A stretch of DNA of 40,859 nt from the IMG/VR virus record IMGVR_UViG_3300012942_000079, positions 1-40,859 of that record. One strand, given 5' to 3'. The stretch's first letter is position 1; each line of letters opens with the position of its first letter. A model generated the notes under the pieces. It did no database searches, was not told where the DNA came from, and saw only the letters and a list, made by a program, of their open reading frames with translations. Shown piece by piece: positions 8,743 to 32,905 of the stretch. Origin of the DNA: a virus. Lineage: Duplodnaviria; Caudoviricetes. The position numbers and the translations under genes are program-made.

Positions 8743-9262
8743 CTGCATCTTCGCGAACTTTCTCGTACTTGATTGCCTCGCCATCCTTGCCGGTGATCTC
8801 TTGGCGTTCAATGAACATACCCAGATGCTTGGCGAGAAGCTCAGCCCCTCGGAGGATAGCGTTAGGGTTGTAGTCTTCCTTCGTCTCACAACGCTCAATC
8901 GTTGCTACGATCTTCTTCAGGACGTAGTCAGCGGTAACGTCGGAGTGCTTGGCTCGATCCATCTTGAGGGCGTCGATGGCTGCCCGGATCGATGGAGTCT
9001 TCAGGAGTTCAGAGGCCAACTGAGCAGGATTATCGGAGGAGTAAGCTGACCTCTGGACAGCCGCTGTACCATTCAGATCAACAAGATACTCTTCAACGAA
9101 GGAACGCTGTTTCCCAGTCAGAGCAGCCAGAATGTCATCGATATTGCCTGAACGGAGAGCTTTCTGAAGCTGAGGAGTCAAGCCCCTCGGCCTAGCCTTA
9201 ATGGTCTTTTTGTAGTTCAGAAGCTCTTTGGCGTAGGATCGTTCACCCTGAGGAACCAACAA
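8648..9262 (-). CDS. terS: terminase small subunit
   Basis: LTGKQRSFVEEYLVDLNGTAAVQRSAYS HTH and ELLAKHLGMF motif; TTG start with GGAGAG RBS. Confidence 0.9.
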   Translation of the reverse strand: MLVPQGERSYAKELLNYKKTIKARPRGLTPQLQKALRSGNIDDILAALTGKQRSFVEEYLVDLNGTAAVQRSAYSSDNPAQLASELLKTPSIRAAIDALKMDRAKHSDVTADYVLKKIVATIERCETKEDYNPNAILRGAELLAKHLGMFIERQEITGKDGEAIKYEKVREDADDFTRSIASLVERAGAPRVVELVDPGAESKS

Positions 9263-9293
9263 TTAAACACTCTCCTCTTTCCCTTATACCCAT

Positions 9294-9322
9294 ATTATAC
9301 CATTTTTAGGTTGCAATGTCAA
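9294..9322 (-). promoter_or_regulatory. sigma70-type promoter for the virion (late) arm
   Basis: Minus strand TTGACA-17 nt-TATAAT, perfect consensus with extended -10 TGG, ~30 nt upstream of terS. Confidence 0.9.
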
Positions 9323-9439
9323 GAACTATTTGTATTTTTCCACAAATATGGGAGGGAAGGGGGGCTTCGGAACGGGGGATGGGTGGGATGACTCCCACAC
9401 CATCGGATAACAAAATCTAGGTAGGGGTCACTTTTACGG

Positions 9440-9468
9440 TTGACAGATTGTCAATTCTATGGTAGAAT
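9440..9468 (+). promoter_or_regulatory. sigma70-type rightward promoter
   Basis: TTGACA-17 nt-TAGAAT with TGG extension. Confidence 0.75.
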
Positions 9469-9602
9469 ATCTATTCTTATAAGAATATACTATAAACAGT
9501 ATTATAAGAATATACTCTTAGTACTGTATTAAAATATAACTTACAACATTAACTATCAACAGGTAATTAACAATAACTAATAACATTCTAAGAATGTTGT
9601 AT
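9467..9602. repeat. very AT-rich segment with direct repeat and palindromes (possible origin/unwinding element)
   Basis: TTATAAGAATATACT at 9477-9491 and 9502-9516; palindrome TATTCTTATAAGAATA at 9472-9487; AACATTCT-A-AGAATGTT at 9582-9598. Confidence 0.5.
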
Positions 9603-10472
9603 TGGGCAGTTAGTCCTCAGCCCTTCGACCCTCTGGTAGTCCGTCTGGTAGGAGATGGGCCAAATAGCTCACAGTTGCGTCTTAGCGATGCTTAGGGCCG
9701 ACAGGCCCGTACCTCAAACTGTCAACTGAAAACTGATAGCTGCTCATAATTTTTTTTACAAATTTACAGGGGAAAGGGAAATGCTGAAATTTTTATTTCC
9801 CGCTTCAGGTGATCTGAGATACACATAATCACTCTCACAATCCACGCCCCCCCCCTACCCCTGCCCCCTCCTCTCCAGCCGACTGCCTGCCCCTCCCCAA
9901 GCGAGCCTCCCCGAGCCATGGCCATGTGATGACATGTCATATCCATGTTGATCGAGGCCGGAGGCCGATTCCAAGGCCCATATCCGGGAAATCGACGCTA
10001 AGGCCCCTAGAAGCCTCTCTCAGCGCGTTGAGGAGGATTTAGCTACCCAAGTACCCTAGGGGGCATCTTCGCGCTCTAAGGGGCATCCTAGAGCCCTACA
10101 GAGGCATATCTAATTGGCATGGCCCTTGCAATCGCATGTGCGGGAGTCTTTTGGTCATTCACGGGGATATTCTCTAACACATCAGTAGACAATTCCCCTA
10201 GGCTTTCCAGAGCCTTAGAGAACATAAGGGGAACAGACCAAGAACGTACCGGGAACCTGAGCCAGATGGGTTAGAAACCGGAACAAAAGGGGAACATCTG
10301 TGCGATGAACCGTGCAAAAAGAGCGACGAATGGAGTTGATTTAACCAAAAAGGAGGAGCACAAGTGAAGCTGTCGGAAGGGACGGGAACCACCATAGGGT
10401 CAGCCATCTGGGCTTCCCCCGATTGACTATAGCTCTAGGGCCGCTTTTGGTCCGCCTTTAGGAAAGGAGCGT

Positions 10473-10700
10473 ATGACCATGGCTAACATTGATCCAGCAT
10501 CCTGTTATACCGACGGGAGCCATTGCTACTGGCACAACAACCGCCCAGTGGCACAAATAGCGAGCCTTTATGAAGACCCTAGCATGTTTGTGATTGTGGA
10601 GGTCTATCAGGATGGCGGTTGCGGCATGGTAGGGTTGTTTGACCATTATCCTACTGTCCCCGAGGCCCGGAAAGCGTGGGAGGAATGGATCAATGGCTAA
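10473..10700 (+). CDS. early hypothetical protein
   Basis: Strong RBS AGGAAAGGAG; first ORF of the rightward arm. Confidence 0.75.
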   Translation: MTMANIDPASCYTDGSHCYWHNNRPVAQIASLYEDPSMFVIVEVYQDGGCGMVGLFDHYPTVPEARKAWEEWING

Positions 10701-10980
10701 GACGCGAAATCAGCGTAGGATGGCCGCTAAGGCGAGGCGAGAAGCCAAGCAAGAGCGAATTATCAAAGCGCATATCGCGGCTGGATTGGATGCCAATCGG
10801 GCGATTGTTAAGGCCAACCTTAGCAGTCGGATCGAGCGAAATTACTATCCTCAATCCAGCATGGCGGGGATGCTTGCGTCTTCCCATAGGGCCTATATCT
10901 GCCAACCTTCTAGGCGGGGGCGGGGCGGCCATGGCAAGGATAATCAATCTGCCCGGTCTAGCTACTGGTTGGTTGATTGA
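10693..10980 (+). CDS. early basic protein with N-terminal Arg-rich motif
   Basis: ATG 10693 overlaps the previous gene; MAKTRNQRRMAAKARREAKQER. Confidence 0.7.
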   Translation: MAKTRNQRRMAAKARREAKQERIIKAHIAAGLDANRAIVKANLSSRIERNYYPQSSMAGMLASSHRAYICQPSRRGRGGHGKDNQSARSSYWLVD

Positions 10981-10988
10981 GATAGGGG

Positions 10989-11017
10989 TTGACATAGGGA
11001 TATCACGTCTCTAGGTC
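10989..11017 (+). promoter_or_regulatory. putative promoter for the structured RNA
   Basis: TTGACA-17 nt-TAGGTC; predicted start ~11024-11025, next to the first helix of the structured region. Confidence 0.5.
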
Positions 11018-11025
11018 AGCATCCA

Positions 11026-11599
11026 TAGGCGTAGCGGAGCCTGAATCTGCTAGGAACGCTAGGTGCGATAAGCGGCACTTAGTGCATCCCGAGAGGTTTT
11101 GACACAACCTCTCGCTTAGGAACGGGGAGGCACATTTGCCTCTTGGGCGTTCGCGAGGAAGCGCGGTGACTGCATAGTCTCTCGCTGATGACTGGATACT
11201 ATCAGCCATCAGCTTATAGAGGTGCTATGAAGCAATTGTCCGGCTGGAAGAACCTCCTATGAGCAAGGCCCTCTTTGTGCGAAAAGAGGGTGTAGCTACA
11301 TGTAAGCACAGACACGCGGCGTTGATTGCAAACCACTTCAGCGCAAACCGTGGACAGGGTTTCTCTCTGTAAAGGAACGGTGGACGCCTAAAACGAACGT
11401 AACCGATAACCCTAGCATGCTGCAAAAGATGGGCTAGGGGCTAGGTTACGTGGAGATACGCTAGGATCGAACCATGGTGTCGCTTCTCCCTCCAACCCCC
11501 GAGACGGCGATATCATGTTAAGGCGGGATTGATCCTCCGCCTAGCAGCAATCCTAGTCGCTCTAGTCACTGTGAATGGCGTATCTCCACCTAACCTAGC
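11026..11599 (+). ncRNA. candidate large structured non-coding RNA (unassigned family)
   Basis: No credible ORF; more than 15 contiguous helices, many with G-U pairs on the + strand; closing stem TAGGCGT 11026-11032 / ACGCCTA 11384-11390; 22-bp inverted repeat (1 mismatch) at 11440-11461 / 11578-11599. Confidence 0.65.
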
Positions 11600-11666
11600 G
11601 CAACAGTTTGACTTGGTTAGAAATCAACCTTTTAAGCGGGGGATGCTTTATAAGGACATTATTATT

Positions 11667-11855
11667 ATGGGACAGCGTATCCGTGTACCTGATGAACGGC
11701 TTGTTAAGTGGATGGAATATGCCGCTGGCAAGGTTCATATGGCTGTTGAAGAGTATGAGAGGGAAGCCCTTCCTAATACTCTGGTAATGGCTAATCTTCG
11801 CGTTGCTGAAAGTCTCATCAAAGACGTTCAGAAACAGTTCAATCAAAGGCTATGA
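11667..11855 (+). CDS. early hypothetical protein (62 aa, helical)
   Basis: ATG 11667 after TAAGGA; the ORF-track start at 11529 lies inside the RNA structure and is unlikely. Confidence 0.6.
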   Translation: MGQRIRVPDERLVKWMEYAAGKVHMAVEEYEREALPNTLVMANLRVAESLIKDVQKQFNQRL

Positions 11856-11870
11856 CAAGGGGTTGATACC

Positions 11871-12104
11871 ATGGAACAGCGGTTCGATGGGGTATTCTAT
11901 TACCGTGTCTATACAACGGAGTTCCTTTACGGGGAAATGTTAGTTCAAGCCGATGCTATCAGCTACGCCAAAAAGATTTCCCGCCGGTTCCCCAATGCTA
12001 TAGTCTTCGTTGCCACCATGTTTTGCCGGTCGGAGAGTCCTTTCCTTGGTGATACGAAAATGTTCAGAGGCGGAAAACCTTACTCAAACCGCCCACAACC
12101 CTGA
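11871..12104 (+). CDS. early hypothetical protein
   Basis: 77 aa ORF with AAGGGG RBS. Confidence 0.65.
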   Translation: MEQRFDGVFYYRVYTTEFLYGEMLVQADAISYAKKISRRFPNAIVFVATMFCRSESPFLGDTKMFRGGKPYSNRPQP

Positions 12105-12131
12105 GCCCTGTTAGCGGCGTGAGCCCTGTGG

Positions 12132-12159
12132 AAAGCCTCTAGAGATTGGGGGCTTTTTT
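12132..12159 (+). terminator. intrinsic terminator
   Basis: AAAGCCTCTA / TGGGGGCTTT stem ending in a T6 run. Confidence 0.7.
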
Positions 12160-12246
12160 CTAGGCTTACAATGGATTAACCTAGACGGGCTCCGGCATTT
12201 TAGCCGGTAAGCTTGAAATCCCCAACCAACTGTGGAGAATACCATC

Positions 12247-12909
12247 ATGGCTACCAAGGAACAGACTTCTGTCGAAAAGATCGACAAGATGATTGCGGAA
12301 GTCCGCAGTCACATCAATAACTTCAATAGCACGGTGCAAGACGCGGCTGTTGCTATCATCGTCCACGCCAGTCAGTACGGAGATTGCTCGCGTGCGAAAA
12401 TGCTGGCACGGGCAGTTCCTTCCCGGCTCCGCAACATGCTTATCGGCTATTTCGCTCTTTACTCTCCTATCGGGATCAGCATCGGGAAGACGGCTGTGGA
12501 CGATAAGAGTCGGTTCATTCGGCCGGAGAGTAAGCGTTATCACGACTTCAACATTGACGGGGCTAAGGCTAACAAATGGTACGACGATCCAGCCAAGGTT
12601 GCTCCTCCTCCTCCGGCACTCAATAGCCTTAGCGACGCTTGGGATAAGCTTAATGGCTTCCTGAAGCGCCTTCTGGACGATGCTCGGAAGGAAGACGAGA
12701 AAGCCAAGTACAAGGACGAGGATCGTCCGGCTATCATCGAAATGGCCAACGACCTTCAGACCATCGTCAATCGTTACCACGCTCGGCAACTCGCCAAGAT
12801 GGACCCCGATGGACATCACAACGATAACCACGCGGAGGAGCAGGAAGAGGCTGAACAGGCGGCTCCGGCTCGTCGTGGTCGTCGGGTCCGTAAGGCTGCT
12901 AACGGCTGA
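12247..12909 (+). CDS. conserved-looking phage early protein, probably highly expressed
   Basis: GGAG RBS, ATG 12247; capsid-like codon bias; the IIVHASQYGD...RNMLIGYF segment resembles podovirus early hypothetical proteins; Arg-rich C-terminus. Confidence 0.8.
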   Translation: MATKEQTSVEKIDKMIAEVRSHINNFNSTVQDAAVAIIVHASQYGDCSRAKMLARAVPSRLRNMLIGYFALYSPIGISIGKTAVDDKSRFIRPESKRYHDFNIDGAKANKWYDDPAKVAPPPPALNSLSDAWDKLNGFLKRLLDDARKEDEKAKYKDEDRPAIIEMANDLQTIVNRYHARQLAKMDPDGHHNDNHAEEQEEAEQAAPARRGRRVRKAANG

Positions 12910-13080
12910 CCTAAACGAACAACCTGAGCAAGTTGTTAAAAGGCTCAATTTCTATCTGTTAGATAGCTGCATGATCCCGAAGCATCAATCCGCGACGGCG
13001 GTGAGAAGGGCACGGGCTATAAGACGTGCTGGCCAACGCTGTAAGAAAGTGCGGCTTTCTAACCGATAGGAGTGTGTGTA

Positions 13081-13518
13081 ATGCCTGCGGCGAAATATGT
13101 CCTTAATAATATCATCAAAATTCTCTCTGATATCGGTCATACGGAAGACACCAGATTTCCGGGGCTGACCAAGAAAGAAGATATCGCCCACGAGTATATC
13201 GTGGCAAAGACAATCGCCCGTCACGCCCTCAAGCGTCTTGAGTTGGCCGAGAAGGCTGCGACGAGCGAGGGGGTTATCGGGGACCGCTCTAAGCTGGAGA
13301 AGGGGCAGGAAGTCACTGTCTGGAAGCCGAAGAAGGTGCCTCCGAGTGTCTTCATCACGGCTCGGACGAGCATGGATAGGTTGCCTATGCTCGACAGGGC
13401 TTTGCTTGAGAAAGCTCTTCGTAAGCACGTCACAGCGGCTGTAGCAGACCGCATCTATGCGGAGTCCTTGAAGCCTGTTGAACCGACGGTGACTTATTCC
13501 GTTGTGTTCTTTAACTAG
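13081..13518 (+). CDS. hypothetical protein
   Basis: AGGAG RBS, ATG 13081. Confidence 0.75.
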   Translation: MPAAKYVLNNIIKILSDIGHTEDTRFPGLTKKEDIAHEYIVAKTIARHALKRLELAEKAATSEGVIGDRSKLEKGQEVTVWKPKKVPPSVFITARTSMDRLPMLDRALLEKALRKHVTAAVADRIYAESLKPVEPTVTYSVVFFN

Positions 13519-13537
13519 TTCCTCTAGGAGATAGGTA

Positions 13538-13678
13538 ATGACTCCCAACACTCGTCTCTACTGGAAGAGGGTGACTATAGGCCTTCTGGCGGTTATCCTC
13601 TCCCCAATCTGGGCTCCTTTCACCTTTCTGTCTTTGATCGGGGAGTATATTCAGTGGGAGGTACTGGGTGAGCGGTGA
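13538..13678 (+). CDS. small membrane protein (46 aa)
   Basis: Below the ORF-track cutoff. AGGAGATAGG RBS; MTPNTRLYWKRVTIGLLAVILSPIWAPFTFLSLIGEYIQWEVLGER, one hydrophobic stretch. Confidence 0.6.
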   Translation: MTPNTRLYWKRVTIGLLAVILSPIWAPFTFLSLIGEYIQWEVLGER

Positions 13679-13789
13679 CTCTGACTTCTGGTATCGCGTG
13701 GCTTGGAACATCTTCGTTATGCTTCAAGGCATTATCATCTACGTTACAGTTTGTTACATCGACAAGCTAATACGGAAAGGAAAGTAATT

Positions 13790-14191
13790 ATGCCTCTTAT
13801 TGATTGGTCGAAGCCTATTGAAACCACGGACGGCGGGCCAGCCCGAGTTATCTGTACAGACAGGCAAAGTTACAACCCTGTAGTCGTTCTGCTTACTGAT
13901 AGGATGATTCCTAAAGAAGAGTCGATTCTCGCCTTCCCGAAGTATTTCGACACTAATAGCACCTTGTTCGGAATAGGACTTAGGAACAAGGCCGAAGAAG
14001 AATATTTCGTAATCAACCCCAATACAGGTTACTTTTTGGGGGCCAGACTCAAATCCAAGAAGGAGGTTTGTGACCAGTTTAAGATTCCTCCGGGGAAGTC
14101 TGTGCAACTTCTCAAAGTCGTTAAGCAAGACGATGACAAGTGGAGGGCTGTTGAGATTATCGATTACGTCACCGGAACAGAGGAGGACTGA
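13790..14191 (+). CDS. hypothetical protein, paralog 1 (IDWxKPIE...ARVxCTDR)
   Basis: ATG 13790 after GGAAAGGA. Confidence 0.75.
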   Translation: MPLIDWSKPIETTDGGPARVICTDRQSYNPVVVLLTDRMIPKEESILAFPKYFDTNSTLFGIGLRNKAEEEYFVINPNTGYFLGARLKSKKEVCDQFKIPPGKSVQLLKVVKQDDDKWRAVEIIDYVTGTEED

Positions 14192-14194
14192 CTA

Positions 14195-14608
14195 ATGGCT
14201 ACTATAGACTGGACGAAGCCCATCGAGGGGGTTAACGGAGAGAAGGCTCGGGTACTGTGTACTGATAGAGTTTCTATCTCTGAAAGTTCGAAGTCCCGAT
14301 CAGGAGAACCTCTCTCAATTATTGTCTTGATTGAAAACAAAGGCTCCGAGTATCCTCGCAGTCTTACTGTGGAAGGTAAGACCCACTCCGGAATCCTTAG
14401 GGTCAGGAACAAGAAGGAGGTCTCCTACTGCGGCTTTGTCAATGGTATGCGGATTTATCCATCATCCCCCTCTTTAGAGACCGTTAGAAACTCTACCTTG
14501 AGGTGGGCAGGAGATGCTTTCAGCCGACAAGTCTTGAAGATGGAAAGGAGTGTCGATGGCGTCGGCCCTCAAACTTGGAGGATAGTCGAGGTTATTGATG
14601 TCGATTAG
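14195..14608 (+). CDS. hypothetical protein, paralog 2
   Basis: GAGGAGG RBS; shares N- and C-terminal motifs with the previous gene. Confidence 0.75.
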   Translation: MATIDWTKPIEGVNGEKARVLCTDRVSISESSKSRSGEPLSIIVLIENKGSEYPRSLTVEGKTHSGILRVRNKKEVSYCGFVNGMRIYPSSPSLETVRNSTLRWAGDAFSRQVLKMERSVDGVGPQTWRIVEVIDVD

Positions 14609-14981
14609 TAACCCCGTCGTAGCTGTTTACGGGACTCTTCGGGTGGGGACCGCAAAGGGTGATCTTCTAGTCAGCAGAGGGAGAGTTAAACCAGTAGGGA
14701 AGTCACATTTCAAAGGTACACTCTACGATCTAGGAGCCTTTCCCGGTCTTAGGCTTGAAGGGGAAACCCTTATCTGGGTTGACCTTCTGGAACTACGGGA
14801 TGAGAACGTCCTTCACGATCTGGACCTGTACGAAGGCTACATGCCTGATAACCATTTAGACTCTTTGTACCTCCGCAAGCTTCTGCCTTGTGGGGTGTAC
14901 GTGTACGTATTCAACCAATCCTTAAACGGAGCAAAGGAGATTGTTTGTGGAGACTGGCTACAATATCTTGCCGGGGCTTGA
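14598..14981 (+). CDS. gamma-glutamylcyclotransferase (AIG2-like) family protein
   Basis: VYGTLR, GTLYDLGAFPGL, LDLYEG and YVYV motifs. Confidence 0.88.
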   Translation: MSISNPVVAVYGTLRVGTAKGDLLVSRGRVKPVGKSHFKGTLYDLGAFPGLRLEGETLIWVDLLELRDENVLHDLDLYEGYMPDNHLDSLYLRKLLPCGVYVYVFNQSLNGAKEIVCGDWLQYLAGA

Positions 14982-15774
14982 GTACCTCGTCAATACAGGG
15001 AAGAAGTGGCGCAAAGGAGTAACTTGTTCCCAGACATTTAATGGAGATGGCTCTCTGTTCGCTGATGGGAATCACCAATATTGCCATTCAAATGTCAACA
15101 TAGCCTATCGAAAGTTGAAGGGTAAGAGCCCTTTCTACATCGCTAGTGCCTATACCCACAATCGGCACTCTCCGGTCCTCACGAAGGAGGAGTCTGACGC
15201 TCTGATGGATTGGATGCTGGATACTCCTCTCGGCAAGCTGTACATCATCAATCGAGATGACCGCGAGCTTTGCAAGGACGGCGGTATCCTTATCAGCGGT
15301 GAAGCGTCTTGGACTGAATGCCTGTGGATTTGCAAGGTCCTTCGCTACGCTGCCGAGGACCCATCGTCCATCAAGACGTGGAAGGCTCTTGTTGACGCTG
15401 GTGTGGACGGAACCGCTGCCATCTGGATTGCCAGCTACTATCGTTTGTCGGATGATCGAACCTACTTCTACATTCACGAGGTTAACGGTCATGTGTCTGT
15501 CTTCTATAGGTACGCCCAAAATAATTATAAAAACATCAAGGCGGGCTTCAACCTCCTGACCAACTGGCGTTACAACAAAGGAGACAGTGTCGGTGATACA
15601 ACTAGACTTTTTCCGCTCGAAGGTAAAATCGCCGTCACCCCTCCCACCACGGCCCAAGTCGAACCGGATAGGCCAGACGGCTGGGGAGGAGTTATCAAAG
15701 CTGTTCCCATCAACAACAAAGGAACTTCCTTCAAGACCGAAGACTTCATCAAGTGCATCAAGGAGGCAATGTGA
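14947..15774 (+). CDS. hypothetical protein in the amidoligase cluster
   Basis: GTG 14947 about 7 nt after AAGGAG; ~275 aa. Confidence 0.75.
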   Translation: METGYNILPGLEYLVNTGKKWRKGVTCSQTFNGDGSLFADGNHQYCHSNVNIAYRKLKGKSPFYIASAYTHNRHSPVLTKEESDALMDWMLDTPLGKLYIINRDDRELCKDGGILISGEASWTECLWICKVLRYAAEDPSSIKTWKALVDAGVDGTAAIWIASYYRLSDDRTYFYIHEVNGHVSVFYRYAQNNYKNIKAGFNLLTNWRYNKGDSVGDTTRLFPLEGKIAVTPPTTAQVEPDRPDGWGGVIKAVPINNKGTSFKTEDFIKCIKEAM

Positions 15775-15778
15775 GGTT

Positions 15779-16501
15779 ATGCCGCAAGTAACAGAAGTCA
15801 ATCTTGAACCTCTCCGCTGTTATGTCGTCGGTGGAGGGATGAACTACATTCGGATGCTGTATGAGGCTGGCATCCGGGGGGCTACGGACGTCGAAGACGC
15901 TGACTTCGTCATGTTCACTGGGGGAGAAGACGTTGATCCCAAGTTCTATGGAGAGAAGCCTCTTCGTGGAACTAACTATAATACCGCCCGCGATGAACGG
16001 GAGAGGGCTATCTTCGAACAAGCCAAGAAGTCGGGCGTTCCTATGGTAGGTATCTGTCGCGGAGGGCAGTTTCTGAATGTTATGTCAGGCGGCAAGCTTT
16101 GGCAGGACGTAGACAATCATGCGATTGGCGGGGTCCACGATATCGAAGACCATGCTTATGGTCTTAGCCACCTGAAAGTGACCTCTACTCATCACCAGAT
16201 GATGAATCCCGCCGAGGATGGTTTGATCCTAGCTTCTGCTGCTAGGAGCACCTACAGGACGGCAGAAGGGATTCACGCCACTGTCTACGGCGATAATGGA
16301 AGTGCCGGAGTACATGACGATGACGTTGAAGTCGTCTGGTACGACAAGACCAAGTGTCTGTGCTTTCAGCCTCATCCCGAATACCTCATCTCGACGGTTC
16401 CGGATGAAGTTCGAACCATGACTCGGGACTATTTCCTCGATCTGCTCGACGATTATGTCCTTGCAGCTATCAATTCGGGTTCAAAACGTACTCGTAAGTG
16501 A
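15779..16501 (+). CDS. class I glutamine amidotransferase (peptidase C26 / PuuD-like)
   Basis: TGGEDVDP, nucleophile GICRGGQ, HHQ and QPHPE triad motif. Confidence 0.92.
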   Translation: MPQVTEVNLEPLRCYVVGGGMNYIRMLYEAGIRGATDVEDADFVMFTGGEDVDPKFYGEKPLRGTNYNTARDERERAIFEQAKKSGVPMVGICRGGQFLNVMSGGKLWQDVDNHAIGGVHDIEDHAYGLSHLKVTSTHHQMMNPAEDGLILASAARSTYRTAEGIHATVYGDNGSAGVHDDDVEVVWYDKTKCLCFQPHPEYLISTVPDEVRTMTRDYFLDLLDDYVLAAINSGSKRTRK

Positions 16502-16544
16502 ACCAATCTGGTTTGTCAATAGGGAAGATTGAAAGGAATTACTT

Positions 16545-17879
16545 ATTTGTGGACTGGTAGGAGTGCTGTCTAGCAACATGCTCGACAGGCACAAGAAGGC
16601 GTTCCAGATGCTCTTGTTTCTGGATACGCTCCGAGGCTCGCACGCTACAGGTGTCGCCTATGTCCGTAGTACTCGGGCTGTCGAAGTACTGAAGCAACCT
16701 ATTCCGGGGTATGACTTCCTCGAAGACCCTCGGGTAGAGAAAGCCTTCCGTCTGACGGATATCCTGTGGATTGGGCACAACCGGTTCAAGACCATGGGAG
16801 ACAACAACAAGAAGAATGCTCATCCATTCAGTGTTCTGGACAAGGACGGCGATATTGCTCTTGTAGGGGCTCATAATGGGACTCTCAAGAACAAGTGGGA
16901 CCTTCCGGAGCATGACAACTACGGGACTGACTCGGAAGCCTTGTTCAATTGTATCTACAACAAGGGCCTAGAGCCTACGTTTCAGGACTATGTCCGGAGC
17001 GACGGTGCTTGGGCAATCACTTACTGGGATAACCGGAACGATACGTTCAACGTCCTCCGTAACAAGGAGAGGACTCTCTACTGGTGCATGGAAGACGATG
17101 AACAGACTATGTTCTGGGCTTCCGAGAAGTGGATGCTGGAGGCTGCCCTTAGTCGCCACGGTATCAAGATCAAGGATGACAAGATTTATATCTTCGAAGA
17201 GGAGCATCACTACGTCTTTGAGGGTCCTGCAAAGATGAGGGGCAAGATAAATTGGAGTAAGAGCAAGCCGAAGGGAGGCTTGGCTGGCAAGGCCTCCGGT
17301 TTTTTTCAGACAGGGACCACAACAGGAGTTGGTTACGGGGGTGGTGGGACGACGACGCAAACGACATCGGAGTTAGACAGACTGTCGGAAGAGGAACTTC
17401 GACATCTCCGGGAACTGACAGCAAAGAGGACGAGGGAGCCAAACATAAAGAAGAAGGCGGAAATAACAAAGGAGATAATGGCAGTCTGGGAGAAGAACCG
17501 GCAGAACTTACGGTCTGGCGGCAACACGAAAGAGACGGGCACTGGAGCCTCAAGCAAATCAAACGTAGTGATCTTCGGCAAGGCGACCAAATCTACGGTG
17601 TCGTCCCAGCCGTCCACTAAGGACAAGCTTGACACAATCACCAAGACTTTCCGGGGTGCTCACATGACTCGAAAGGAACTTCAAGCTGTCCTAGCTTTTG
17701 GTTGTTCTTGGTGTGAGGATGAGGAGTTGACGCCAGAGAGTCTCTATGGGTGGATCGACGACTCTCATGTTTGTTGTAAGAAGTGTCTGAACGATACTCA
17801 CGATGTATCTAAGGACGATGTTTCGAATGTGGGTGACGAAGGGGTCTCCTCTCCGTCAACTCGCATTCTCCGCAATTAG
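16545..17879 (+). CDS. class II (Ntn) glutamine amidotransferase with C-terminal Zn-finger-like extension; predicted ATT start
   Basis: ATT-TGT-GGA-CTG-GTA-GGA gives (M)CGLVG; RGSHATG, GHNR, NAHPF, AHNGTL, TDSE and WASE motifs. Confidence 0.9.
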   Translation: MCGLVGVLSSNMLDRHKKAFQMLLFLDTLRGSHATGVAYVRSTRAVEVLKQPIPGYDFLEDPRVEKAFRLTDILWIGHNRFKTMGDNNKKNAHPFSVLDKDGDIALVGAHNGTLKNKWDLPEHDNYGTDSEALFNCIYNKGLEPTFQDYVRSDGAWAITYWDNRNDTFNVLRNKERTLYWCMEDDEQTMFWASEKWMLEAALSRHGIKIKDDKIYIFEEEHHYVFEGPAKMRGKINWSKSKPKGGLAGKASGFFQTGTTTGVGYGGGGTTTQTTSELDRLSEEELRHLRELTAKRTREPNIKKKAEITKEIMAVWEKNRQNLRSGGNTKETGTGASSKSNVVIFGKATKSTVSSQPSTKDKLDTITKTFRGAHMTRKELQAVLAFGCSWCEDEELTPESLYGWIDDSHVCCKKCLNDTHDVSKDDVSNVGDEGVSSPSTRILRN

Positions 17880-17901
17880 TAACCACAAGGAGTGAAGACT
17901 A

Positions 17902-18729
17902 ATGTTGAAGATTACGCTTGGGTGTGACCCGGAAATCTTTGTCCATAATAAGGACCAGAAGCCTCGGTCTGCTTATGGGATGATTCCGGGGACGAAGAGT
18001 GAGCCTCACCTTGTTGAAGAAGGGATGGTTCAGATCGACGGAACAGCCTTGGAGTTCGGTATCGACCCTTGTTCCTCGGAAGATGAGTGGGTTCGTCGGA
18101 TCAACAAGGTTATGAGCCAGATGAGGGCTATGCTGCCGAAAGGGTACGATTTCCTCCATTCCTCTTCAGTAGTATTCAACGGAAATCACTTCCGTAAACA
18201 GCCTAAAGAGGCCCTTGAGCTTGGGTGTGAACCAGATTACGACGCCTACACCTTGCAGGCTAATCCTCGCCCCGTGGCACCTCCCAACTTCCGGACGGCT
18301 GGAGGTCACGTCCACATCGGGTTCTGTGAGGATGAGAAGGACATCTTAGGCAAAGCTCACATGGACCGTTGCGCTACTCTTGTTAAGCAGCTTGATGTGT
18401 ACTTGGGGCTCCCTTCGGTACTGTTTGACAGGGATACTCGTCGGCGTAGATTGTATGGTGGTCCGGGGGCGTTCCGTCCTAAGAGCTACGGCTGTGAATA
18501 TAGAACCCTCAGCAATTCGTGGATCGAGGATGAGTGGAAACAAAGGTTCGTCTATCGGGCCACCACCATGGCCATCGAGGATCTGTTGAACGGAGTTCGA
18601 GGATTTGATGGCTCCGTGGCGGAAACTGATGTTAAGGATATGATAAAGAACTCTCAACACTACAGAGCGCGAAACGCTTTGCGCCGCTTTAAGCCTAAAC
18701 TCTTTGGGGAGGTATCGAAGTGTCTCTGA
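17902..18729 (+). CDS. phiEco32-like COOH-NH2 ligase type 2
   Basis: GCDPEIF, GCEPDYDAY, RTAGGHVHIG, RRRLYGGPGAFRPKSYGCEYRTLSN. Confidence 0.92.
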   Translation: MLKITLGCDPEIFVHNKDQKPRSAYGMIPGTKSEPHLVEEGMVQIDGTALEFGIDPCSSEDEWVRRINKVMSQMRAMLPKGYDFLHSSSVVFNGNHFRKQPKEALELGCEPDYDAYTLQANPRPVAPPNFRTAGGHVHIGFCEDEKDILGKAHMDRCATLVKQLDVYLGLPSVLFDRDTRRRRLYGGPGAFRPKSYGCEYRTLSNSWIEDEWKQRFVYRATTMAIEDLLNGVRGFDGSVAETDVKDMIKNSQHYRARNALRRFKPKLFGEVSKCL

Positions 18730-19403
18730 AGGCTCCTAACTACGAAACCTTGGAGGATGCCAAGGCTCGGCTGTCTGGTTCTGTTGTTCTGTACGAGAAC
18801 CGTCCGGTGTACATCTCGGGTGTGGGCAAGCTCGTGGACGCATCAGAGGCAGCTAAGGGGGATATCTATCGAGTATATTGCTGGAGCCTCCCTATCTCCA
18901 AAGAGAAGCTGGCTAACACTCCTCCGGAGGAGGCCGAGTTCCGTCGGTACATATCTTCTCGTAAGTTCGATATGGCCGGTATTAAACTCGGATATATGAA
19001 CTACGATGATGGAGACACAACTCTCCACCTCTCGCGAGTACCTGTCCGAGGGTACAAGCAAGGACTGTGCGAGAATAATCTCAGGGTAGAGAGGTGCTCT
19101 GGGGGCGAAGGTCTCCGAAAGGTTACTCGCTTCACTGACATCATCTCCAGCAAGGGTTTCCCTCAGATGGTTGAAGGAAGCTACCCGAGGCTGAAGGACT
19201 ACAAGGGTAAATCCTCCTTCGCTCTGTCCCGGACTGTGTCTGTCAACAAGGACGAGAACTTCGATCTGTACTACGTCTTTTACAAAATGCAAAAGGTAGG
19301 GCTGGTTCTTCCAAATACAGATGAAGTCCATCTCGCCAAGAAATACTCCTTCCTGAAGGAAACGATGGAAGAGAGCCATATCCCTTTCAACCTCCAGAAA
19401 TAG
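18720..19403 (+). CDS. hypothetical protein in the amidoligase cluster
   Basis: 227 aa, GGGGAGG RBS, lies between the two ligases. Confidence 0.8.
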   Translation: MSLKAPNYETLEDAKARLSGSVVLYENRPVYISGVGKLVDASEAAKGDIYRVYCWSLPISKEKLANTPPEEAEFRRYISSRKFDMAGIKLGYMNYDDGDTTLHLSRVPVRGYKQGLCENNLRVERCSGGEGLRKVTRFTDIISSKGFPQMVEGSYPRLKDYKGKSSFALSRTVSVNKDENFDLYYVFYKMQKVGLVLPNTDEVHLAKKYSFLKETMEESHIPFNLQK

Positions 19404-19415
19404 AGTTGGACGACT

Positions 19416-20660
19416 ATGCCAGAGATTGAATTTGATGGCCGGTTATTCCGTGTAGAAGATGTTATGGTGGGGGGGGACGAGGAGGGATTACCGCCTAATC
19501 AGCCGAGGGCTCCAGCCCCTCCGCCTCCACAGCACGATCCCAGAGTCCCGCGACCGGCAGACATTATTGCGGCTAATGCTGCAAGAATAGAGGAGATTTT
19601 AAGAAGGAACCAGCGGCGGGAGGTGGCTGTGCCTGTTGGGGCAGAGATACCGCGTCGGTTTACACTAAAGAAGGTGATGGATATGGGCAAGGGTTATAAT
19701 GTCCTAGACCTCCACATCTCCGAACTTGTTGCCTTGAGGCATAAGGTAAAAGGAGATATGTTTGGAGTAGAGTTGGAGATGGAGGGCCGTAACCTCGCTA
19801 TGGCGAAGGATTACATCCTCTGCGACTGGGTCAGCCATGTGGACGGTTCCCTCCGCAACTACCATGGAGAGGCTATCGAGTGGGTGACTAATAGGCCGGA
19901 GAGTTACGAGGACACCGTAAAGAAGATAGACAGGCTCTTTAAAGGACTGGCTGAGAACCGAGCGAAGGTAGTTCCTAGCAATCGGACCTCTACCCATGTC
20001 CACTTCAACATGGGAGACAAGAAGGTCTATCAGTTGACGAACCTCTTCATCTACTACACTCTTATTGAAGATGTCCTCGGGCACTTCGCAGGGGATGATC
20101 GGAATGGGAATGTCTTCTGCCTCCGAAACAGGGACGCTTCTGCTACCATTCAGATGTTCTACAACAGTGTCGTGACGTACAAGAACTTGGGGGATTTCAA
20201 TGGTAATAACCGATACTCGGCCCTGAACCTCTGTTCTCTGTTCAAGTTCGGTACTGTAGAGTTCAGGCAGATGCGGGGAGTCGATAAGCCTGATGATCTC
20301 CTCACGTGGTTGAAGCTCCTGAACAGGCTCATCCAGTTCTCCATGAACAGTATGCAGGCTCCGTCCGAGGTTATTGAGTTCATCTCTGTCGGGGGTCCTA
20401 TCGGTTTTCTCAATCAAGTCTTTGGACCTGAACTAACCAATAAGCTGGTAGTCTTGTACGGTTCGGAGCGGGAAGTCTGCGACAGCATCTACGAGGGAGT
20501 CCGGGAGGTTCAGCATCTGGCCTATGCTGTGTCCCCTAACTATGAGGGACTGACCCCTCCTATGAAGGATTTCTGGGCACAGCAAAAGGCCGGTCTCGCT
20601 GATTATAAGGCTAGGATTGAGGAGGACGACGATGTGGAAGGTGAGCAAGAGGATTTCTAA
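19416..20660 (+). CDS. putative amidoligase (COOH-NH2 ligase, Amidoligase_2-like)
   Basis: FGVELEMEG, DGSLR, STHVHFN, RYSALN, GTVEFR; Pro-rich N-terminal extension. Confidence 0.9.
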   Translation: MPEIEFDGRLFRVEDVMVGGDEEGLPPNQPRAPAPPPPQHDPRVPRPADIIAANAARIEEILRRNQRREVAVPVGAEIPRRFTLKKVMDMGKGYNVLDLHISELVALRHKVKGDMFGVELEMEGRNLAMAKDYILCDWVSHVDGSLRNYHGEAIEWVTNRPESYEDTVKKIDRLFKGLAENRAKVVPSNRTSTHVHFNMGDKKVYQLTNLFIYYTLIEDVLGHFAGDDRNGNVFCLRNRDASATIQMFYNSVVTYKNLGDFNGNNRYSALNLCSLFKFGTVEFRQMRGVDKPDDLLTWLKLLNRLIQFSMNSMQAPSEVIEFISVGGPIGFLNQVFGPELTNKLVVLYGSEREVCDSIYEGVREVQHLAYAVSPNYEGLTPPMKDFWAQQKAGLADYKARIEEDDDVEGEQEDF

Positions 20661-21405
20661 GATCAGGGTGTACCCGTACAAACAAGGGTCAGCTTCAGCC
20701 AAGATACTGGCAGAGAAGATGGGAGGTAAAGTTCTAAAGCATGTCAACAGTAAATATGCCCCTCGTGATGGTGATATCATTATCAATTGGGGTAGTTCTA
20801 ATCCTCCTGACTTCAGGAAGGGGACCACCCTCAATAAGGACGTGAAGATAGCGTCCAACAAGCTTAGTGCATTCAAGAAAATGAAGGAAGAGGGGGTTTC
20901 GATCCCTGACTTCTACGAGAACAAGGAAGAAATCCCTAATGGTGATGAAGCTTATCCGATCGTCTGTCGAACTATTCTTAATGGCCACAGTGGCGCTGGC
21001 ATCGTCATTGCTGATGGTGTCGATGACCTTGTAGACGCTCCTCTCTATACCAAGTACGTGAAGAAGGCTGATGAGTACCGGGTTCATGTAGTCCGGGACG
21101 AAGTGGCTATGATCGTCCGTAAGGCCCGTAGGATGGACGTAGAGAAGGAGAATGTGAATTGGAGGGTGCGTAACCTAGCCGGAGGTTTCGTCTTTGTAAT
21201 GTTGGATGAGGGCGATGTAGAGGCATGTGTGGTAGAGGAGGCTAAGAAAGCTATCAAGGCTCTGTCTTTGGACTTCGGGGGAGTGGACGTTATCTTTAAC
21301 AAGTACGAAGGAAAGGCTTACGTGCTTGAGGTAAACACCGCTTGTGGGCTGGAAGACCGGACTGCTGAAGCCTATGCTCAAGCCTTTGAGAAGCTTAGGT
21401 TTTAA
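20641..21405 (+). CDS. ATP-grasp ligase (phage RimK/YheCD-like)
   Basis: IINWG, GHSGAGIV, EYRVHV, LDFGGVDVI, YVLEVNTACG; start uncertain (20617-20641). Confidence 0.9.
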   Translation: MSKRISKIRVYPYKQGSASAKILAEKMGGKVLKHVNSKYAPRDGDIIINWGSSNPPDFRKGTTLNKDVKIASNKLSAFKKMKEEGVSIPDFYENKEEIPNGDEAYPIVCRTILNGHSGAGIVIADGVDDLVDAPLYTKYVKKADEYRVHVVRDEVAMIVRKARRMDVEKENVNWRVRNLAGGFVFVMLDEGDVEACVVEEAKKAIKALSLDFGGVDVIFNKYEGKAYVLEVNTACGLEDRTAEAYAQAFEKLRF

Positions 21406-21414
21406 AAATAGTGC

Positions 21415-21442
21415 TTGACAACTCAGAGAAATCTGATATAAT
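21415..21442 (+). promoter_or_regulatory. sigma70-type promoter
   Basis: TTGACA-16 nt-TATAAT with TGn extension and AT-rich upstream element. Confidence 0.85.
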
Positions 21443-21509
21443 ATCTTTATAGGCACAGCGGTAAAACACTCCTCTATAAACACATACTCAAGAAAGGAGG
21501 CCCTCCTCC

Positions 21510-21731
21510 ATGCACTGTAATATCTGTGATAAGCAACTTGATGAGTCTGACATCGTATGGAATGATGACTTGAAGAAGTGGGAACCTTGTAAGGAGTGTC
21601 TGGAAATAATCTATGATGCTGCATATCAGGGCCAGTTCACCAAGGAAGACCCCGTAGAGACATTGGAGCCAGAGTTTGATTTCTCTGGAGAGGGTGTTGA
21701 CTTTTCAGATGATAGGTTGTATAATCTTTAG
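21510..21731 (+). CDS. small Zn-ribbon protein (CxxC...CxxC) with acidic tail
   Basis: MHCNICD...PCKEC; AAAGGAGG RBS. Confidence 0.8.
   Translation: MHCNICDKQLDESDIVWNDDLKKWEPCKECLEIIYDAAYQGQFTKEDPVETLEPEFDFSGEGVDFSDDRLYNL
21697..21725 (+). promoter_or_regulatory. sigma70-type promoter
   Basis: TTGACT-17 nt-TATAAT. Confidence 0.75.
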
Positions 21732-21739
21732 GAGAAGGT

Positions 21740-21871
21740 ATGGCTATTGCTAACCTTAAAATCTATCCATGTCCTTTCTGTTCTGAATGGTCATCTACCC
21801 ATAAGGATAGGGTTGACCACATGACTAAGAAACACTCTAGAAAGAAGAAGGAGGCTAAGAAAGACCAATGA
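21740..21871 (+). CDS. 43-aa C2H2 zinc-finger protein
   Basis: Not in the track. AGGAGAAGG RBS; MAIANLKIYPCPFCSEWSSTHKDRVDHMTKKHSRKKKEAKKDQ = C-x2-C-x12-H-x4-H. Confidence 0.7.
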   Translation: MAIANLKIYPCPFCSEWSSTHKDRVDHMTKKHSRKKKEAKKDQ

Positions 21872-22023
21872 ACGATAAGGCCCTAGAGACTCTGGAGAAG
21901 CAAGCAGCCATCTGGAAAGCAGAGACAATGGCAATTCACAAAGTCAAGCCTATAGCCTCCACGAAGAATATCGGTCATCTCTGTGGGTTGATCGAGGACT
22001 TGATTAAGGAGCTTAGGAAGTGA
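21868..22023 (+). CDS. hypothetical protein (51 aa)
   Basis: ATGA overlap with the previous gene and GTGA overlap with the next; AAGGAGG upstream. Confidence 0.65.
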   Translation: MNDKALETLEKQAAIWKAETMAIHKVKPIASTKNIGHLCGLIEDLIKELRK

Positions 22024-22556
22024 GTGGTAAGACGTGGGTCATTGCAGACACCCACTTCAGCCACCAAGGAATGTGTCAGTTCACCAACTATGACGGAACC
22101 AAGGTTCGCCCTTGGGATAACTATGAGGAAATGGATGAAGCCCTCATCGAGAATTGGAACTCTGTTGTTAGTCCTGACGATAGAGTTTACCTCCTTGGTG
22201 ATGTTGCTATGGGTCGTAAAGGACTTCGATGCGTGGAGCGGCTCCAAGGTCGTATCGTTCTTGTAAAGGGCAACCACGATCAAGAGAAGCTGGGTAAGTA
22301 TGTTGACCTCTTCGACGACATTCGTGCTTGTGTCGTCAAGAAGGGCTTCATTATGACCCATATCCCTATTCATCCCGCCTGTCTGGCTAGGTGGAACCTG
22401 AATATCCATGGGCACCTCCACAACAACACCATTAAAGAAATCAAGCACGACAACATTGAGGATCAGCGCTACTTCTGTGCATCGGTAGAGAGGATTAACT
22501 TCACTCCGATCCTCCTAGACGACATTCTAAAGCAGAGGAAGGTTAACCAAGGATGA
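22020..22556 (+). CDS. calcineurin-like metallophosphoesterase
   Basis: DTHFSH, LGDV, GNHD, THIP, HGHLH. Confidence 0.92.
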   Translation: MSGKTWVIADTHFSHQGMCQFTNYDGTKVRPWDNYEEMDEALIENWNSVVSPDDRVYLLGDVAMGRKGLRCVERLQGRIVLVKGNHDQEKLGKYVDLFDDIRACVVKKGFIMTHIPIHPACLARWNLNIHGHLHNNTIKEIKHDNIEDQRYFCASVERINFTPILLDDILKQRKVNQG

Positions 22557-23266
22557 AGTTCTCCCTCATAAGTGATATGCACATCAACCATCCACAGCCT
22601 CGAACCCCTTACGATCAGCTTGAGCATATTGTTGTTGTCGCTGGGGATACTGACAACGGACTCGGTGGTTTGAAGTACCTCCAGAAGCTGAAGAACAAGG
22701 GCTATACTGTTATCGCTACCCATGGCAATCACGAACACTACTCCAATGTTGCCCAAGACCGTACCATGTGCGACACGATCAACAGGTTTCAACAGGACCA
22801 TCCTGACTTCTACGACTTCGGAAAGGACGTTCCTCTCTTCGTAGCCCGGAATGGTTGGTACATCGTAAAGGATGAGCCCCTCTGGTATAATTACATGAAC
22901 GATGGTCGTTACGGAGGGTTCGGAGCCGACGAGGTGAACTCTTGGGCTAAGATGGACTCTATCCGTGTTAAGTCTGTCCTCCGGCTGGCTCAACTGACCA
23001 ACCGTAAGGTGGTTGTAGTTACCCATACTGCCCCCTGTGAGGAGTCCCTGAATCAGGAGTATAAGGACCACTACTCACAGTCTTGGTACTGGAACCCTCT
23101 TATGCGTCCTCTGCTAGAGGAGTATAAGGACACTATCGCTGTCTGGTGTCACGGGCATACCCACGCTCAGGCTGATGTAGTTGTTGACGGAGTACGAGTT
23201 GTTGCTAACCCCCGTGGCTATCCAAGGGAGAACCCCGATTGGATGCCACTGACCATTGAGGTGTAA
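22553..23266 (+). CDS. calcineurin-like metallophosphoesterase
   Basis: SDMH, AGD, GNHEHY, THTAP, HGHTH, NPRGY. Confidence 0.92.
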   Translation: MKFSLISDMHINHPQPRTPYDQLEHIVVVAGDTDNGLGGLKYLQKLKNKGYTVIATHGNHEHYSNVAQDRTMCDTINRFQQDHPDFYDFGKDVPLFVARNGWYIVKDEPLWYNYMNDGRYGGFGADEVNSWAKMDSIRVKSVLRLAQLTNRKVVVVTHTAPCEESLNQEYKDHYSQSWYWNPLMRPLLEEYKDTIAVWCHGHTHAQADVVVDGVRVVANPRGYPRENPDWMPLTIEV

Positions 23267-23271
23267 TTACT

Positions 23272-23472
23272 ATGGAAGGGAATTACTTTGATACCCTCCC
23301 TAATGCGGTTGACGCCGCTCGGGAGGCTCTCGTCCATCTTGATGCTCGCGGATACACCAATGAGTATGGACTCATACGCCCTCCCTCGAAAGGCTTTAAG
23401 GAGTCCTCCCGAGACTCTGATGCCATCGATTATCTCTGTAGCGAATGGGACTACGGCTGGGCGGATATGTGA
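23272..23472 (+). CDS. hypothetical protein
   Basis: 66 aa, GAGGTG RBS. Confidence 0.65.
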   Translation: MEGNYFDTLPNAVDAAREALVHLDARGYTNEYGLIRPPSKGFKESSRDSDAIDYLCSEWDYGWADM

Positions 23473-23699
23473 TGGTCTACTATGTCCACATAAATAGAGG
23501 GGTAATAGATAGTAATAGGAAATACGGTCGCAACGACCCTCCTATAAGGATTCAAAGAGGTAAGTACGGGAAACCTGAATATGGGTATAGGTGCGAACTG
23601 CCCGAAGGTAGTGTGATACTGTACGATAGAGAGGGGTCTATCCTCCCATGCGGGGCCAGACTTGTAATCGCTTCCCAGAGTAGGCCAATCCTTGAGTAA
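23472..23699 (+). CDS. hypothetical protein
   Basis: TGATG-coupled start; VHINRGVIDSNRK...LPCGARLVI. Confidence 0.65.
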   Translation: MVYYVHINRGVIDSNRKYGRNDPPIRIQRGKYGKPEYGYRCELPEGSVILYDREGSILPCGARLVIASQSRPILE

Positions 23700-25353: not shown

Positions 25354-25376
25354 CCACCAAGGAGTATTGATGGATC

Positions 25377-27185: not shown

Positions 27186-27201
27186 CTAGTTAATTTAGTA
27201 G

Positions 27202-27229
27202 TTGACATTAGTTTCATATGTGGTATAAT
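27202..27229 (+). promoter_or_regulatory. sigma70-type promoter upstream of SSB
   Basis: TTGACA-16 nt-TATAAT with TGG extension. Confidence 0.85.
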
Positions 27230-27283
27230 AAGAGTACAAGGTAGGGGGTTCACCTTGTTCAACACTAGAAAAGGATTAAGATA

Positions 27284-27826
27284 TTGGCGTCTAATAAGAC
27301 TGTAGCTTTCATCCGTGGCAAGCTCTATTGGCCTAAAGTCTTCGGAGAACCTCGGCCCAACTACGCTGGGGATGGTCGGGAGTGGACCTTCGAAATAGAG
27401 CCCGACGAGGAAGGGCTCGCCACCTGTAAGAAGCTGGGTATTACTGGTAAACTGAAGGATAAGTACGAGGATCGTGGTAAGTATCTGACTCTGAAGCGTC
27501 GTGAACTGACCAAGAGCGGAGAAAAGAACAGCCATATCCGAGTCATCGGCCCTGACAACAACGAGTGGGGTGATAAGCTCCTCGGTAACGAGACTATTGC
27601 TGATGTCAAGATTGATGTCCGCTCCTATGATAAGGGCATGAAGGGCGTCTACCCGATTGCTATTCGTGTTGTTGACCATGTGGAGTATAAGAGCAATGAG
27701 TTCCCTCCCATGACTAAGGATGACGAGTACTACAAGGCCCCAGACAAGGATGATTTTAAGAAGGACTTTGGCATTGAGGAGTCCGACGCTGACAATGAAG
27801 ACCTTGATGACGAAGTTCCTTTTTGA
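27284..27826 (+). CDS. single-stranded DNA-binding protein (T7 gp2.5-like)
   Basis: Follows the polymerase; GN motif, AIRVVDHVEY, acidic tail ending DDEVPF. Confidence 0.8.
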   Translation: MASNKTVAFIRGKLYWPKVFGEPRPNYAGDGREWTFEIEPDEEGLATCKKLGITGKLKDKYEDRGKYLTLKRRELTKSGEKNSHIRVIGPDNNEWGDKLLGNETIADVKIDVRSYDKGMKGVYPIAIRVVDHVEYKSNEFPPMTKDDEYYKAPDKDDFKKDFGIEESDADNEDLDDEVPF

Positions 27827-27982
27827 GGGTAGACCGGGTGGTAAGGTGAGGGATTACCTACTCCTTCAGAAGGAGGGGTTTTAACTGCGATACCCTCCGA
27901 TACCCGGCTGATCTGGGGAGATGCGGGGTAGCTCCAGCGAGAATGACAATGAAGCCCGCACATATATAACGGAGATATCCTA

Positions 27983-28243
27983 GTGCCTAAATACCGCTTT
28001 ACTGTTGATGTCCTTAGAGATGTTGAGGAGACTATTGACATCATCGTCAACGCTGGTAGTCTCGAAGAAGCTAAAGAGATGGCTGAGAAGATTATAGTAG
28101 AGTATCCTTGCAGCGGATATGTCGCTGATAGATATCTCGTTACTCATAATCATATCTCTATCCCTTATGAGATAGGCTTCCGAGAATTGGACGATAAACC
28201 AGTTAACGATAACGCTGACGAGGAGCCAGACCTAATTGCCTAG
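27983..28243 (+). CDS. hypothetical protein
   Basis: GTG start after GGAG. Confidence 0.7.
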   Translation: MPKYRFTVDVLRDVEETIDIIVNAGSLEEAKEMAEKIIVEYPCSGYVADRYLVTHNHISIPYEIGFRELDDKPVNDNADEEPDLIA

Positions 28244-29454: not shown

Positions 29455-29459
29455 TAACT

Positions 29460-30173: not shown

Positions 30174-30177
30174 CATT

Positions 30178-30652: not shown

Positions 30653-30676
30653 TAATAACAAGAAAGAGAGTTAACC

Positions 30677-32900: not shown

Positions 32901-32905
32901 GCTTG

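Follow-up and report, generated by a model that had tools for sequence, protein, structure and literature searches.

RNase III processes the early message of phage T7 at five sites (PMC3867540). The enzyme needs a helix of ~11 bp beside the cut and ~20–22 bp in all (PMC1540722), and when it cuts a single strand, a stabilising 3′ hairpin can remain (PMC3867540). In phage HK022, which relies on host RNA polymerase, the putL and putR RNAs of ~70 nt and two stems lie just behind the early promoter (PMC9378689). The put RNA binds the beta-prime zinc domain and suppresses termination. The structures of the ROOL and GOLLD RNAs, which form oligomeric cages of RNA only, have been solved, but their function is still missing, partly for want of a tractable phage–host pair.

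The sequence studied here (the window) is the whole 40,859-nt stretch of IMG/VR record IMGVR_UViG_3300012942_000079, which derives from an uncultured podophage and represents a genome ~85% complete. A family search of the translations identified a portal and coat of the P22 type, an amidoligase cluster like that of phiEco32, a primase-helicase, a family A polymerase and ribonucleotide reductase. The 50 translations scanned from this ~85% complete genome gave no match to an RNA polymerase, integrase or reverse transcriptase family. The packaging genes run leftward from ~9260, and the early and replication genes run rightward from 10473 to 33895, forming a + strand run of ~23 kb. The element described below is located at the head of this run, directly behind a predicted promoter. 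Its conserved upstream neighbour is a small basic ORF (10693–10980, + strand) with homologs in the related contigs L006, L008 and L095. The first ORF on its 3′ side (11667–11855, + strand; 62 aa) is conserved in L095 and has no Pfam match, and a phrog_1448-like early gene (12247–12909, + strand) was used as the synteny anchor in protein-anchored searches. The host is likely alphaproteobacterial, because the best terminase matches are Brevundimonas phages (54%) and LexA-type boxes are observed at 10220–10295.

These boxes are four tandem copies of GAAC-N7-GAAC, which is complementary to the LexA box of Alphaproteobacteria (PMC3323433), and the window contains seven copies in total versus 1.3 expected. 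GAAC-N7-GAAC is also located upstream of early genes in L003, L006, L007, L008, L011, L012, L015, L018 and L095; 12 of the 21 loci scanned have a match, with none in the cultured phages Cd1 or BC. The boxes could place the early operon under SOS control in a phage with no detected integrase, or could titrate LexA. Two spaced GCGA(C/T)GAA words form a conserved DNA motif just 5′ of the TTGA box (window ~10300–10345; L095 136–180; L008 ~4650–4605), possibly a regulator site or a promoter. A strong promoter (TTGACA-17-TAGAAT) in 9440–9516 is followed, within an AT-rich stretch, by a 15-nt direct repeat and an 11-bp inverted repeat, and a perfect promoter at 9322 diverges from it. Near-perfect sigma70 promoters are found at 21415, 21697 and 27202 inside the rightward gene run. 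A 1602-aa protein (35601–40409, minus strand) shows a weak ART-PolyVal (ADP-ribosyltransferase) match at residues 538–582, below the Pfam cut-off, and is likely an injected virion protein.

The original prediction described 11026–11599 as an almost continuously paired + strand RNA of ~575 nt. Its helices were drawn accurately: 15 of 17 pair gap-free, and the other two (11120–32/11137–52 and 11212–23/11252–64) pair only with the bulges already drawn for them. RNA of the + strand is favoured over a DNA form, as predicted, because the 15 gap-free helices contain 10 G-U pairs, no A-C pair and one C-C mismatch. The element folds with a minimum free energy (MFE) of −241.4 kcal/mol (z −7.83), and none of 100 dinucleotide shuffles is as stable; the reverse strand gives a z of −2.83, and the element folded as DNA gives −4.42. 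The segment 11401–11600 is the most structured 200-nt segment in the entire 40.9 kb, and 11001–11300 is among the top nine. The second most structured 200-nt segment (32901–33100, minus strand; z −6.4) is antisense in the ribonucleotide reductase small-chain gene. No ORF is common to the element and L095, and the frame is broken by indels, in agreement with the proposed lack of coding. A sigma70-type promoter (TTGACA, 17 nt, TAGGTC; 10989–11017, + strand) is present as described, with transcription expected to start near 11024; position 11017 is T in the close-relative sequencing runs X2, X3, X5 and X6, which gives a better −10 box. A terminator scan found no terminator after the element, and the element would thus also be the 5′ part of the early message. 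Two apparent sequence features were discarded: CTAG occurs 10 times in the element, but other kilobases of the window hold 7–10 copies, and CsrB-like GGA repeats lie outside hairpin loops and are not retained.

L095, the one divergent homolog found, is a metagenome contig obtained by searching with the phrog_1448-like protein encoded downstream as the anchor. In viral contigs, this search gave no match with the single protein and one with a protein alignment; in genomes, it gave none. Protein homologs of the anchor (P0002–P0019) are 40–72% identical to it. In metagenomes, the search gave two matches, the window's own record and L095. L095 retains the entire gene order around the element, which is located at about 1020–1500 behind TTGACA-17-TAAATA and is 53.6% identical (253 of 472 columns), with a fold z of −4.48 (reverse strand, −3.16). 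DNA identity is 61–66% in the element and 53–70% in the flanking genes, so that the element is conserved about equally and not more.

The helices of the original prediction were drawn without the L095 sequence and therefore constitute a fair prediction when tested on it. On a sequence-only alignment, L095 keeps 72 of 96 alignable pairs, with 37 unchanged, 12 changed on one side and 23 changed on both sides; 24 pairs are broken, and 52 fall in gaps. Partners shifted by 1–3 columns keep only 29–44 pairs. When the window and L095 are scanned without bias for helices that both can form, six helices score at least 8, whereas 60 column shuffles yield 0.17 such helices on average and never more than 1. 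After registration by hand, the 17 helices retain 111 of their 112 pairs, 47 of them changed on both sides, a count that is tilted towards the model. The order and spacing of the helices and the sequences of the unpaired loops are retained in L095 while the stems are swapped. The fold is conserved and covaries in the comparison with this one divergent homolog, and conservation of RNA structure in the element is nearly certain.

The core structured RNA (11024–11390, + strand), the first domain of the original prediction, consists of successive covarying arms whose unpaired loops are conserved, and it has seven or more conserved helices within 365 nt. It is supported by the fold and by L095 covariation, and RNA-library contigs from runs X3, X4 and X5 cover it. 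Six hairpins (11057/11084, 11090/11114, 11120/11152, 11258/11302, 11319/11344 and 11355/11369) and a long arm (11173/11229) are observed in the fold and in the L095 comparison. The helix proposed to close the domain, between 11026–11032 and 11384–11390, is uncertain: it is present in the MFE fold of 11024–11452, but two of its seven pairs are broken in X2, X3, X5 and X6. It has no aligned counterpart in L095, for which a different 8-bp closing helix is predicted that overlaps the −10 box of L095. Three other pairings originally drawn are also weakened, namely 11220–23/11252–55 (disrupted by a close-relative variant), 11461–67/11550–56 (disrupted by several) and 11347–51/11377–81 (lost in L095). 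A tentative long-range or pseudoknot pairing connects 11238–11242 with 11351–11355; all five pairs are kept in L095, one with a double change, and the score is within the range that shuffles reach. An A-rich linker (11390–11396) follows the core.

Variation among close relatives was analyzed using a 47-kb contig from X2 that spans the region and is 90–95% alike, with no substitution listed in 11232–11507. Of 33 close-relative substitution rows, 24 were tested, and nine were dropped as lying outside the element or in an ambiguously aligned loop. Ten of the 24 are unpaired, eight keep a pair, and six break a pair. The pair-breaking substitutions are confined to three helices: two in the closing helix 11026–32/11384–90, one in 11220–23/11252–55, where it also breaks the terminal U-G of the revised arm, and three in 11461–67/11550–56, beside a deletion. 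RNA-library contigs from X3–X5, all from one study and possibly DNA carry-over, together cover 10995–11388. The individual contigs, which may likewise be DNA, span 10995–11385, 11044–11388 (plus 21 variant letters to about 11023) and 11001–11385. A fourth contig, from X6, covers 10960–11127, a small share of the element, and continues upstream; the X3, X5 and X6 contigs extend upstream across the promoter. These contigs have a depth of 3–7 and come from runs selected using this stretch, and they give presence rather than strand, level or ends. X3, X4 and X5 have no contig on 10300–10994 or 11389–12300, and their contigs stop at 11385, 11388 and 11385, respectively; these stops were rejected as a sign of a 3′ end or of higher expression, since contig holes from one study prove nothing.

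The 3′ portion of the element differs from the second domain originally proposed and is better described as an RNase III-type stem around a variable insert, together with a conserved hairpin and a switch helix absent from the earlier list. A conserved + strand RNA with its own predicted promoter is upheld by L095 covariation and close-relative variants, but a single two-domain unit of 575 nt is poorly supported. In the 22-bp stem, the 5′ arm (11440–11461, + strand) contains segment B and a C-C mismatch at 11449, and it pairs with the 3′ arm (11578–11599, + strand), termed segment C. L095 keeps 20 of 21 pairs with eight double changes, and X2 has no listed substitution in the 5′ arm. The enclosed insert (11462–11577, + strand) forms two hairpins, one with a C-rich loop, and is likely a spacer; it carries 12 substitutions and several indels in X2. 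The insert measures 116 nt in the window and ~41 nt of unrelated sequence in L095, and in L014, L015 and L018, the long stem encloses a whole ORF. Upstream of the stem, a hairpin (11410–11439, + strand) combines a swapped 7-bp stem, in which six of seven pairs are changed on both sides in L095, with a near-invariant 16-nt loop (15 of 16 bases identical).

Segment A (11397–11404, + strand), missed in the original prediction, forms 8 bp with segment B (11444–11451) and thereby excludes the 22-bp stem. The A:B helix is the second-best conserved helix in the unbiased scan and has two double changes in L095. The mismatched base of B:C is paired in A:B and covaries, as C-G in the window and U-A in L095. 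In the folding of growing prefixes, the A:B probability is 1.0 up to 11595, and the B:C probability is 1.0 from 11600; the same switch is observed in L095. A:B and B:C are mutually exclusive helices. B:C lacks a U tract, and the ribosome site at 11652 lies outside it.

The early regions scanned for long stems came from the window, nine relatives and two cultured phages, and 32 such stems were listed. Seventeen stems, some of them kin, were chosen as lying between genes and having a mismatch, and perfect stems and weak long-range stems were dropped. A pyrimidine-pyrimidine mismatch is located at pair 8–13 in 16 of the 17, and a U-purine step is found immediately 5′ of the mismatch in 11. An alternative of the A:B type exceeds shuffles in three stems (window, p 0.007; L095, 0.003; L006, 0 of 300) and does not do so in the other 14 (Cd1, 0.08). 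The 22-bp stem with its one mismatch, kept in L095, has the length that RNase III requires. It is likely an RNase III site, because this class of mismatch stem recurs between early genes of related phages; the recurrence includes another long stem in the window with this kind of mismatch (12948–12972/13049–13073). Processing by RNase III at the 22-bp stem is accordingly graded as probable on this analysis.

Additional observations were made on the stems and hairpins of these early regions. In L003 (652–560), L012 (3818–3725) and L008 (3650–3585), all on the minus strand, the loop of the terminal long stem is complementary (5–6 bp, judged by eye) to the following gene's ribosome-binding site. 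Such a loop could keep translation blocked for as long as the stem is uncut, or the complementarity may be due to chance. The C-rich loop of the window matches 11637–11642, upstream of the real ribosome site, possibly by chance. A short hairpin (12159–12185) conserved in L095 lies ahead of the phrog_1448-like gene.

The locus has counterparts by position in other genomes. In the relatives that share the small terminase and in L089, the order is terminase, promoters, in some cases the basic ORF, an ORF-free tract of 500–700 nt, small ORFs and the phrog_1448-like gene. The tracts of the relatives fold at z values of −2.4 to −6.9 (20 shuffles each), with sequences unlike the element, and a TTGAC(A/T) promoter is located at the 5′ end in 6 of the 10 tracts examined. 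Models built from the window and L095 gave no significant match in any of the eight syntenic relatives and two cultured phages searched; the best match at the expected place was in L006 (E 3.8). Homology of the core to L003/L008/L011/L012, L006, L014, L015, L018, L089, Cd1 and BC was not shown, and the short words that they share are within chance. A separate conserved non-coding tract family with shared sequence blocks and no Rfam match occupies the same locus on the minus strand (L003 1121–580, L008 4180–3600, L011/L012 4263–3745). Covariation in the L003/L008/L012 group is not above shuffles in an automatic alignment. Searches with blastn of the element and of the L012 tract against cultured phages gave no match, and four short matches of the L095 tract were rejected as chance. 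Matches to sequence patterns were also rejected as chance (L084–L088, five P2-like sequences, to one 19-mer; L096 and L097, of which L096 is coding and unrelated; L098, to a 20-mer only), and two further patterns had no match.

Cultured phages contain a look-alike. In Cd1 (Caulobacter) and in BC, AA and Babayka (Brevundimonas), a strongly conserved unannotated tract of ~580 nt precedes the first gene (L099 905–1512, L100 835–1421, L101 290–890; no Rfam match). Similar to the element, these tracts lie between the last early promoter and the phrog_1448-like gene and terminate in a stem of the same type; they also share an alternative helix of 8 bp and resemble the element in a loop motif. They differ in belonging to Autographiviridae, in their weak z values (−1.2 and −2.1), in giving no match to the core model R1 and in having the loop motif inside the stem. 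Common ancestry with the element is possible.

The element belongs to no catalogued RNA family by the tests run. The Rfam comparison gave no match in the window at the gathering score, and in 9200–12300 nothing was found at E up to 10 except four chance matches, as the proposed novelty predicted. Rfam likewise matched nothing in the tracts of the relatives, and ARAGORN detected no tRNA or tmRNA in the window. Neither the GOLLD covariance model, which covers a conserved 3′ region, nor the ROOL model matches. GOLLD is often longer than 800 nt and near tRNA genes, whereas the element is at most 575 nt in a window with no tRNA gene. ROOL has several conserved pseudoknots, and the element has one candidate, 11238–42/11351–55, within the chance range. 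No description of the element was found in the literature within reach, which includes two 2026 preprints on non-coding discovery and leaves out most subscription journals. The phage catalogue of Fremin lists motifs of at most 151 nt (PMC10690425). A small motif overlapping the element may be among them.

The preferred reading, to which we assign slightly less than an even chance, is that RNase III releases the element as a folded non-coding RNA, which then works in trans as a decoy or scaffold that binds protein. Host RNA polymerase would start near 11024 from the promoter at 10989, and segment A would pair with B while the RNA grows. Segment C, once made, would displace A to form the 22-bp stem, and RNase III would cut near the mismatch at 11449. 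Segment A could then re-pair with B, freeing the RNA from the downstream message and sealing its 3′ end. The proposed product (11024–11452) folds with a z of −6.84, and the 365-nt core may result from its trimming within the A-rich linker. The resulting RNA of 365–430 nt would act early in infection, with the conserved unpaired loops 11067–74, 11326–37 and 11417–32 as putative binding surfaces; that its partner is a host defence or RNA-binding protein is a guess. Release and action in trans are suggested because the element has a dedicated promoter, a stem at which it would be cut free, a helix positioned to reseal the cut end and loops that are conserved while the stems change. For action in trans taken by itself, the balance is about even.

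A cis-acting leader, for which the stable piece would be a by-product, is the less likely but strongest alternative. The nascent RNA would modify host RNA polymerase and so mediate antitermination as put does, or the A:B to B:C transition would time the early operon. The element resembles put in lying directly downstream of an early promoter, here at the head of the ~23-kb + strand run, in a phage with no RNA polymerase family in the 50 translations of the ~85% complete genome. The missing 3′ terminator and the conserved co-transcriptional switch also agree with such a leader, and put itself works promoter-proximally in this way (PMC9378689). However, compared with the ~70 nt and two stem-loops of put, the element has at least seven helices over 365 nt, a core five times larger with no likeness in sequence or structure (PMC9378689). 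No boxA-like match is found near the promoter (4 elsewhere versus 3.0 expected), terminator-like sites in 11000–30900 number 16 versus 14.8 in shuffles, and 21415, 21697 and 27202 are sites of additional strong promoters. Moreover, B:C lacks a U tract and leaves the ribosome site at 11652 uncovered.

A simpler leader, in which a chain of local hairpins shields the 5′ end of the early message, one RNase III site is present and the fold as a whole has no function, is improbable. The best-supported helices are indeed local, the syntenic tracts of relatives are structured (z −2.4 to −6.9) with unlike sequences, and one loop motif occurs at a different position in Caulobacter phage Cd1, as would be expected for shuffled modules. 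Plain stability, however, does not require that helix order, spacing and loops be kept while stems swap, and 365 nt far exceeds the need of a 5′ shield. Much less probable still is a DNA-level or replication element, which would form hairpins or cruciforms close to the end of the genome or give a primer transcript of the ColE1 RNA II type. The element lies ~1.2 kb from the start of the 47-kb X2 contig and folds as DNA at z −4.42, and a long transcript with exclusive helices resembles ColE1 RNA II; against this stand the 10 G-U and no A-C pairs on the + strand, the many variants that create or remove G-U pairs and the primase-helicase encoded by the phage itself. The catalysis once proposed found no support, and a ribozyme or intron relic, suggested by size, helix density and a hammerhead-like word at 11185–91, is scarcely credible given the absence of Rfam matches even at E values as high as 10, no catalytic core of a self-cleaving ribozyme or group I/II intron, no interrupted gene, no reverse transcriptase in the 50 translations and loss of that word in L095.

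The element may tentatively be regarded, at odds well below even, as the first representative of a class of large folded RNAs, not described before, in podophages of Alphaproteobacteria, first made on entry and equipped with a self-resetting switch. In such a class, the RNA would build its RNase III site only after folding and then reseal its 3′ end, and the freed RNA would act in trans against host defence or assemble as ROOL does. The fast-evolving structured tracts that occupy this position in eight uncultured relatives and in the cultured Caulobacter and Brevundimonas phages would be its divergent members. The position of the element is where phages put the needs of the first minutes of infection, and its release route is testable; the look-alike tract in cultured phages makes action in cis or in trans directly testable as well. 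Even as a processing leader only, the element would be a new conserved RNA family with a switch-gated RNase III site. In T7, as in the phage studied here, host-polymerase promoters near the genome end are followed by mismatch stems between early genes (PMC3867540, PMC1540722, PMC6212723). The element differs in that a conserved 365–430-nt fold with a switch helix precedes the first stem. To our knowledge, T7 has no such conserved fold with a switch helix. ROOL and GOLLD resemble the element as large, densely paired phage-encoded RNAs with no known protein partner or function (PMC12286853), whereas the element is shorter than GOLLD, stands at the head of an early operon and carries a processing stem.
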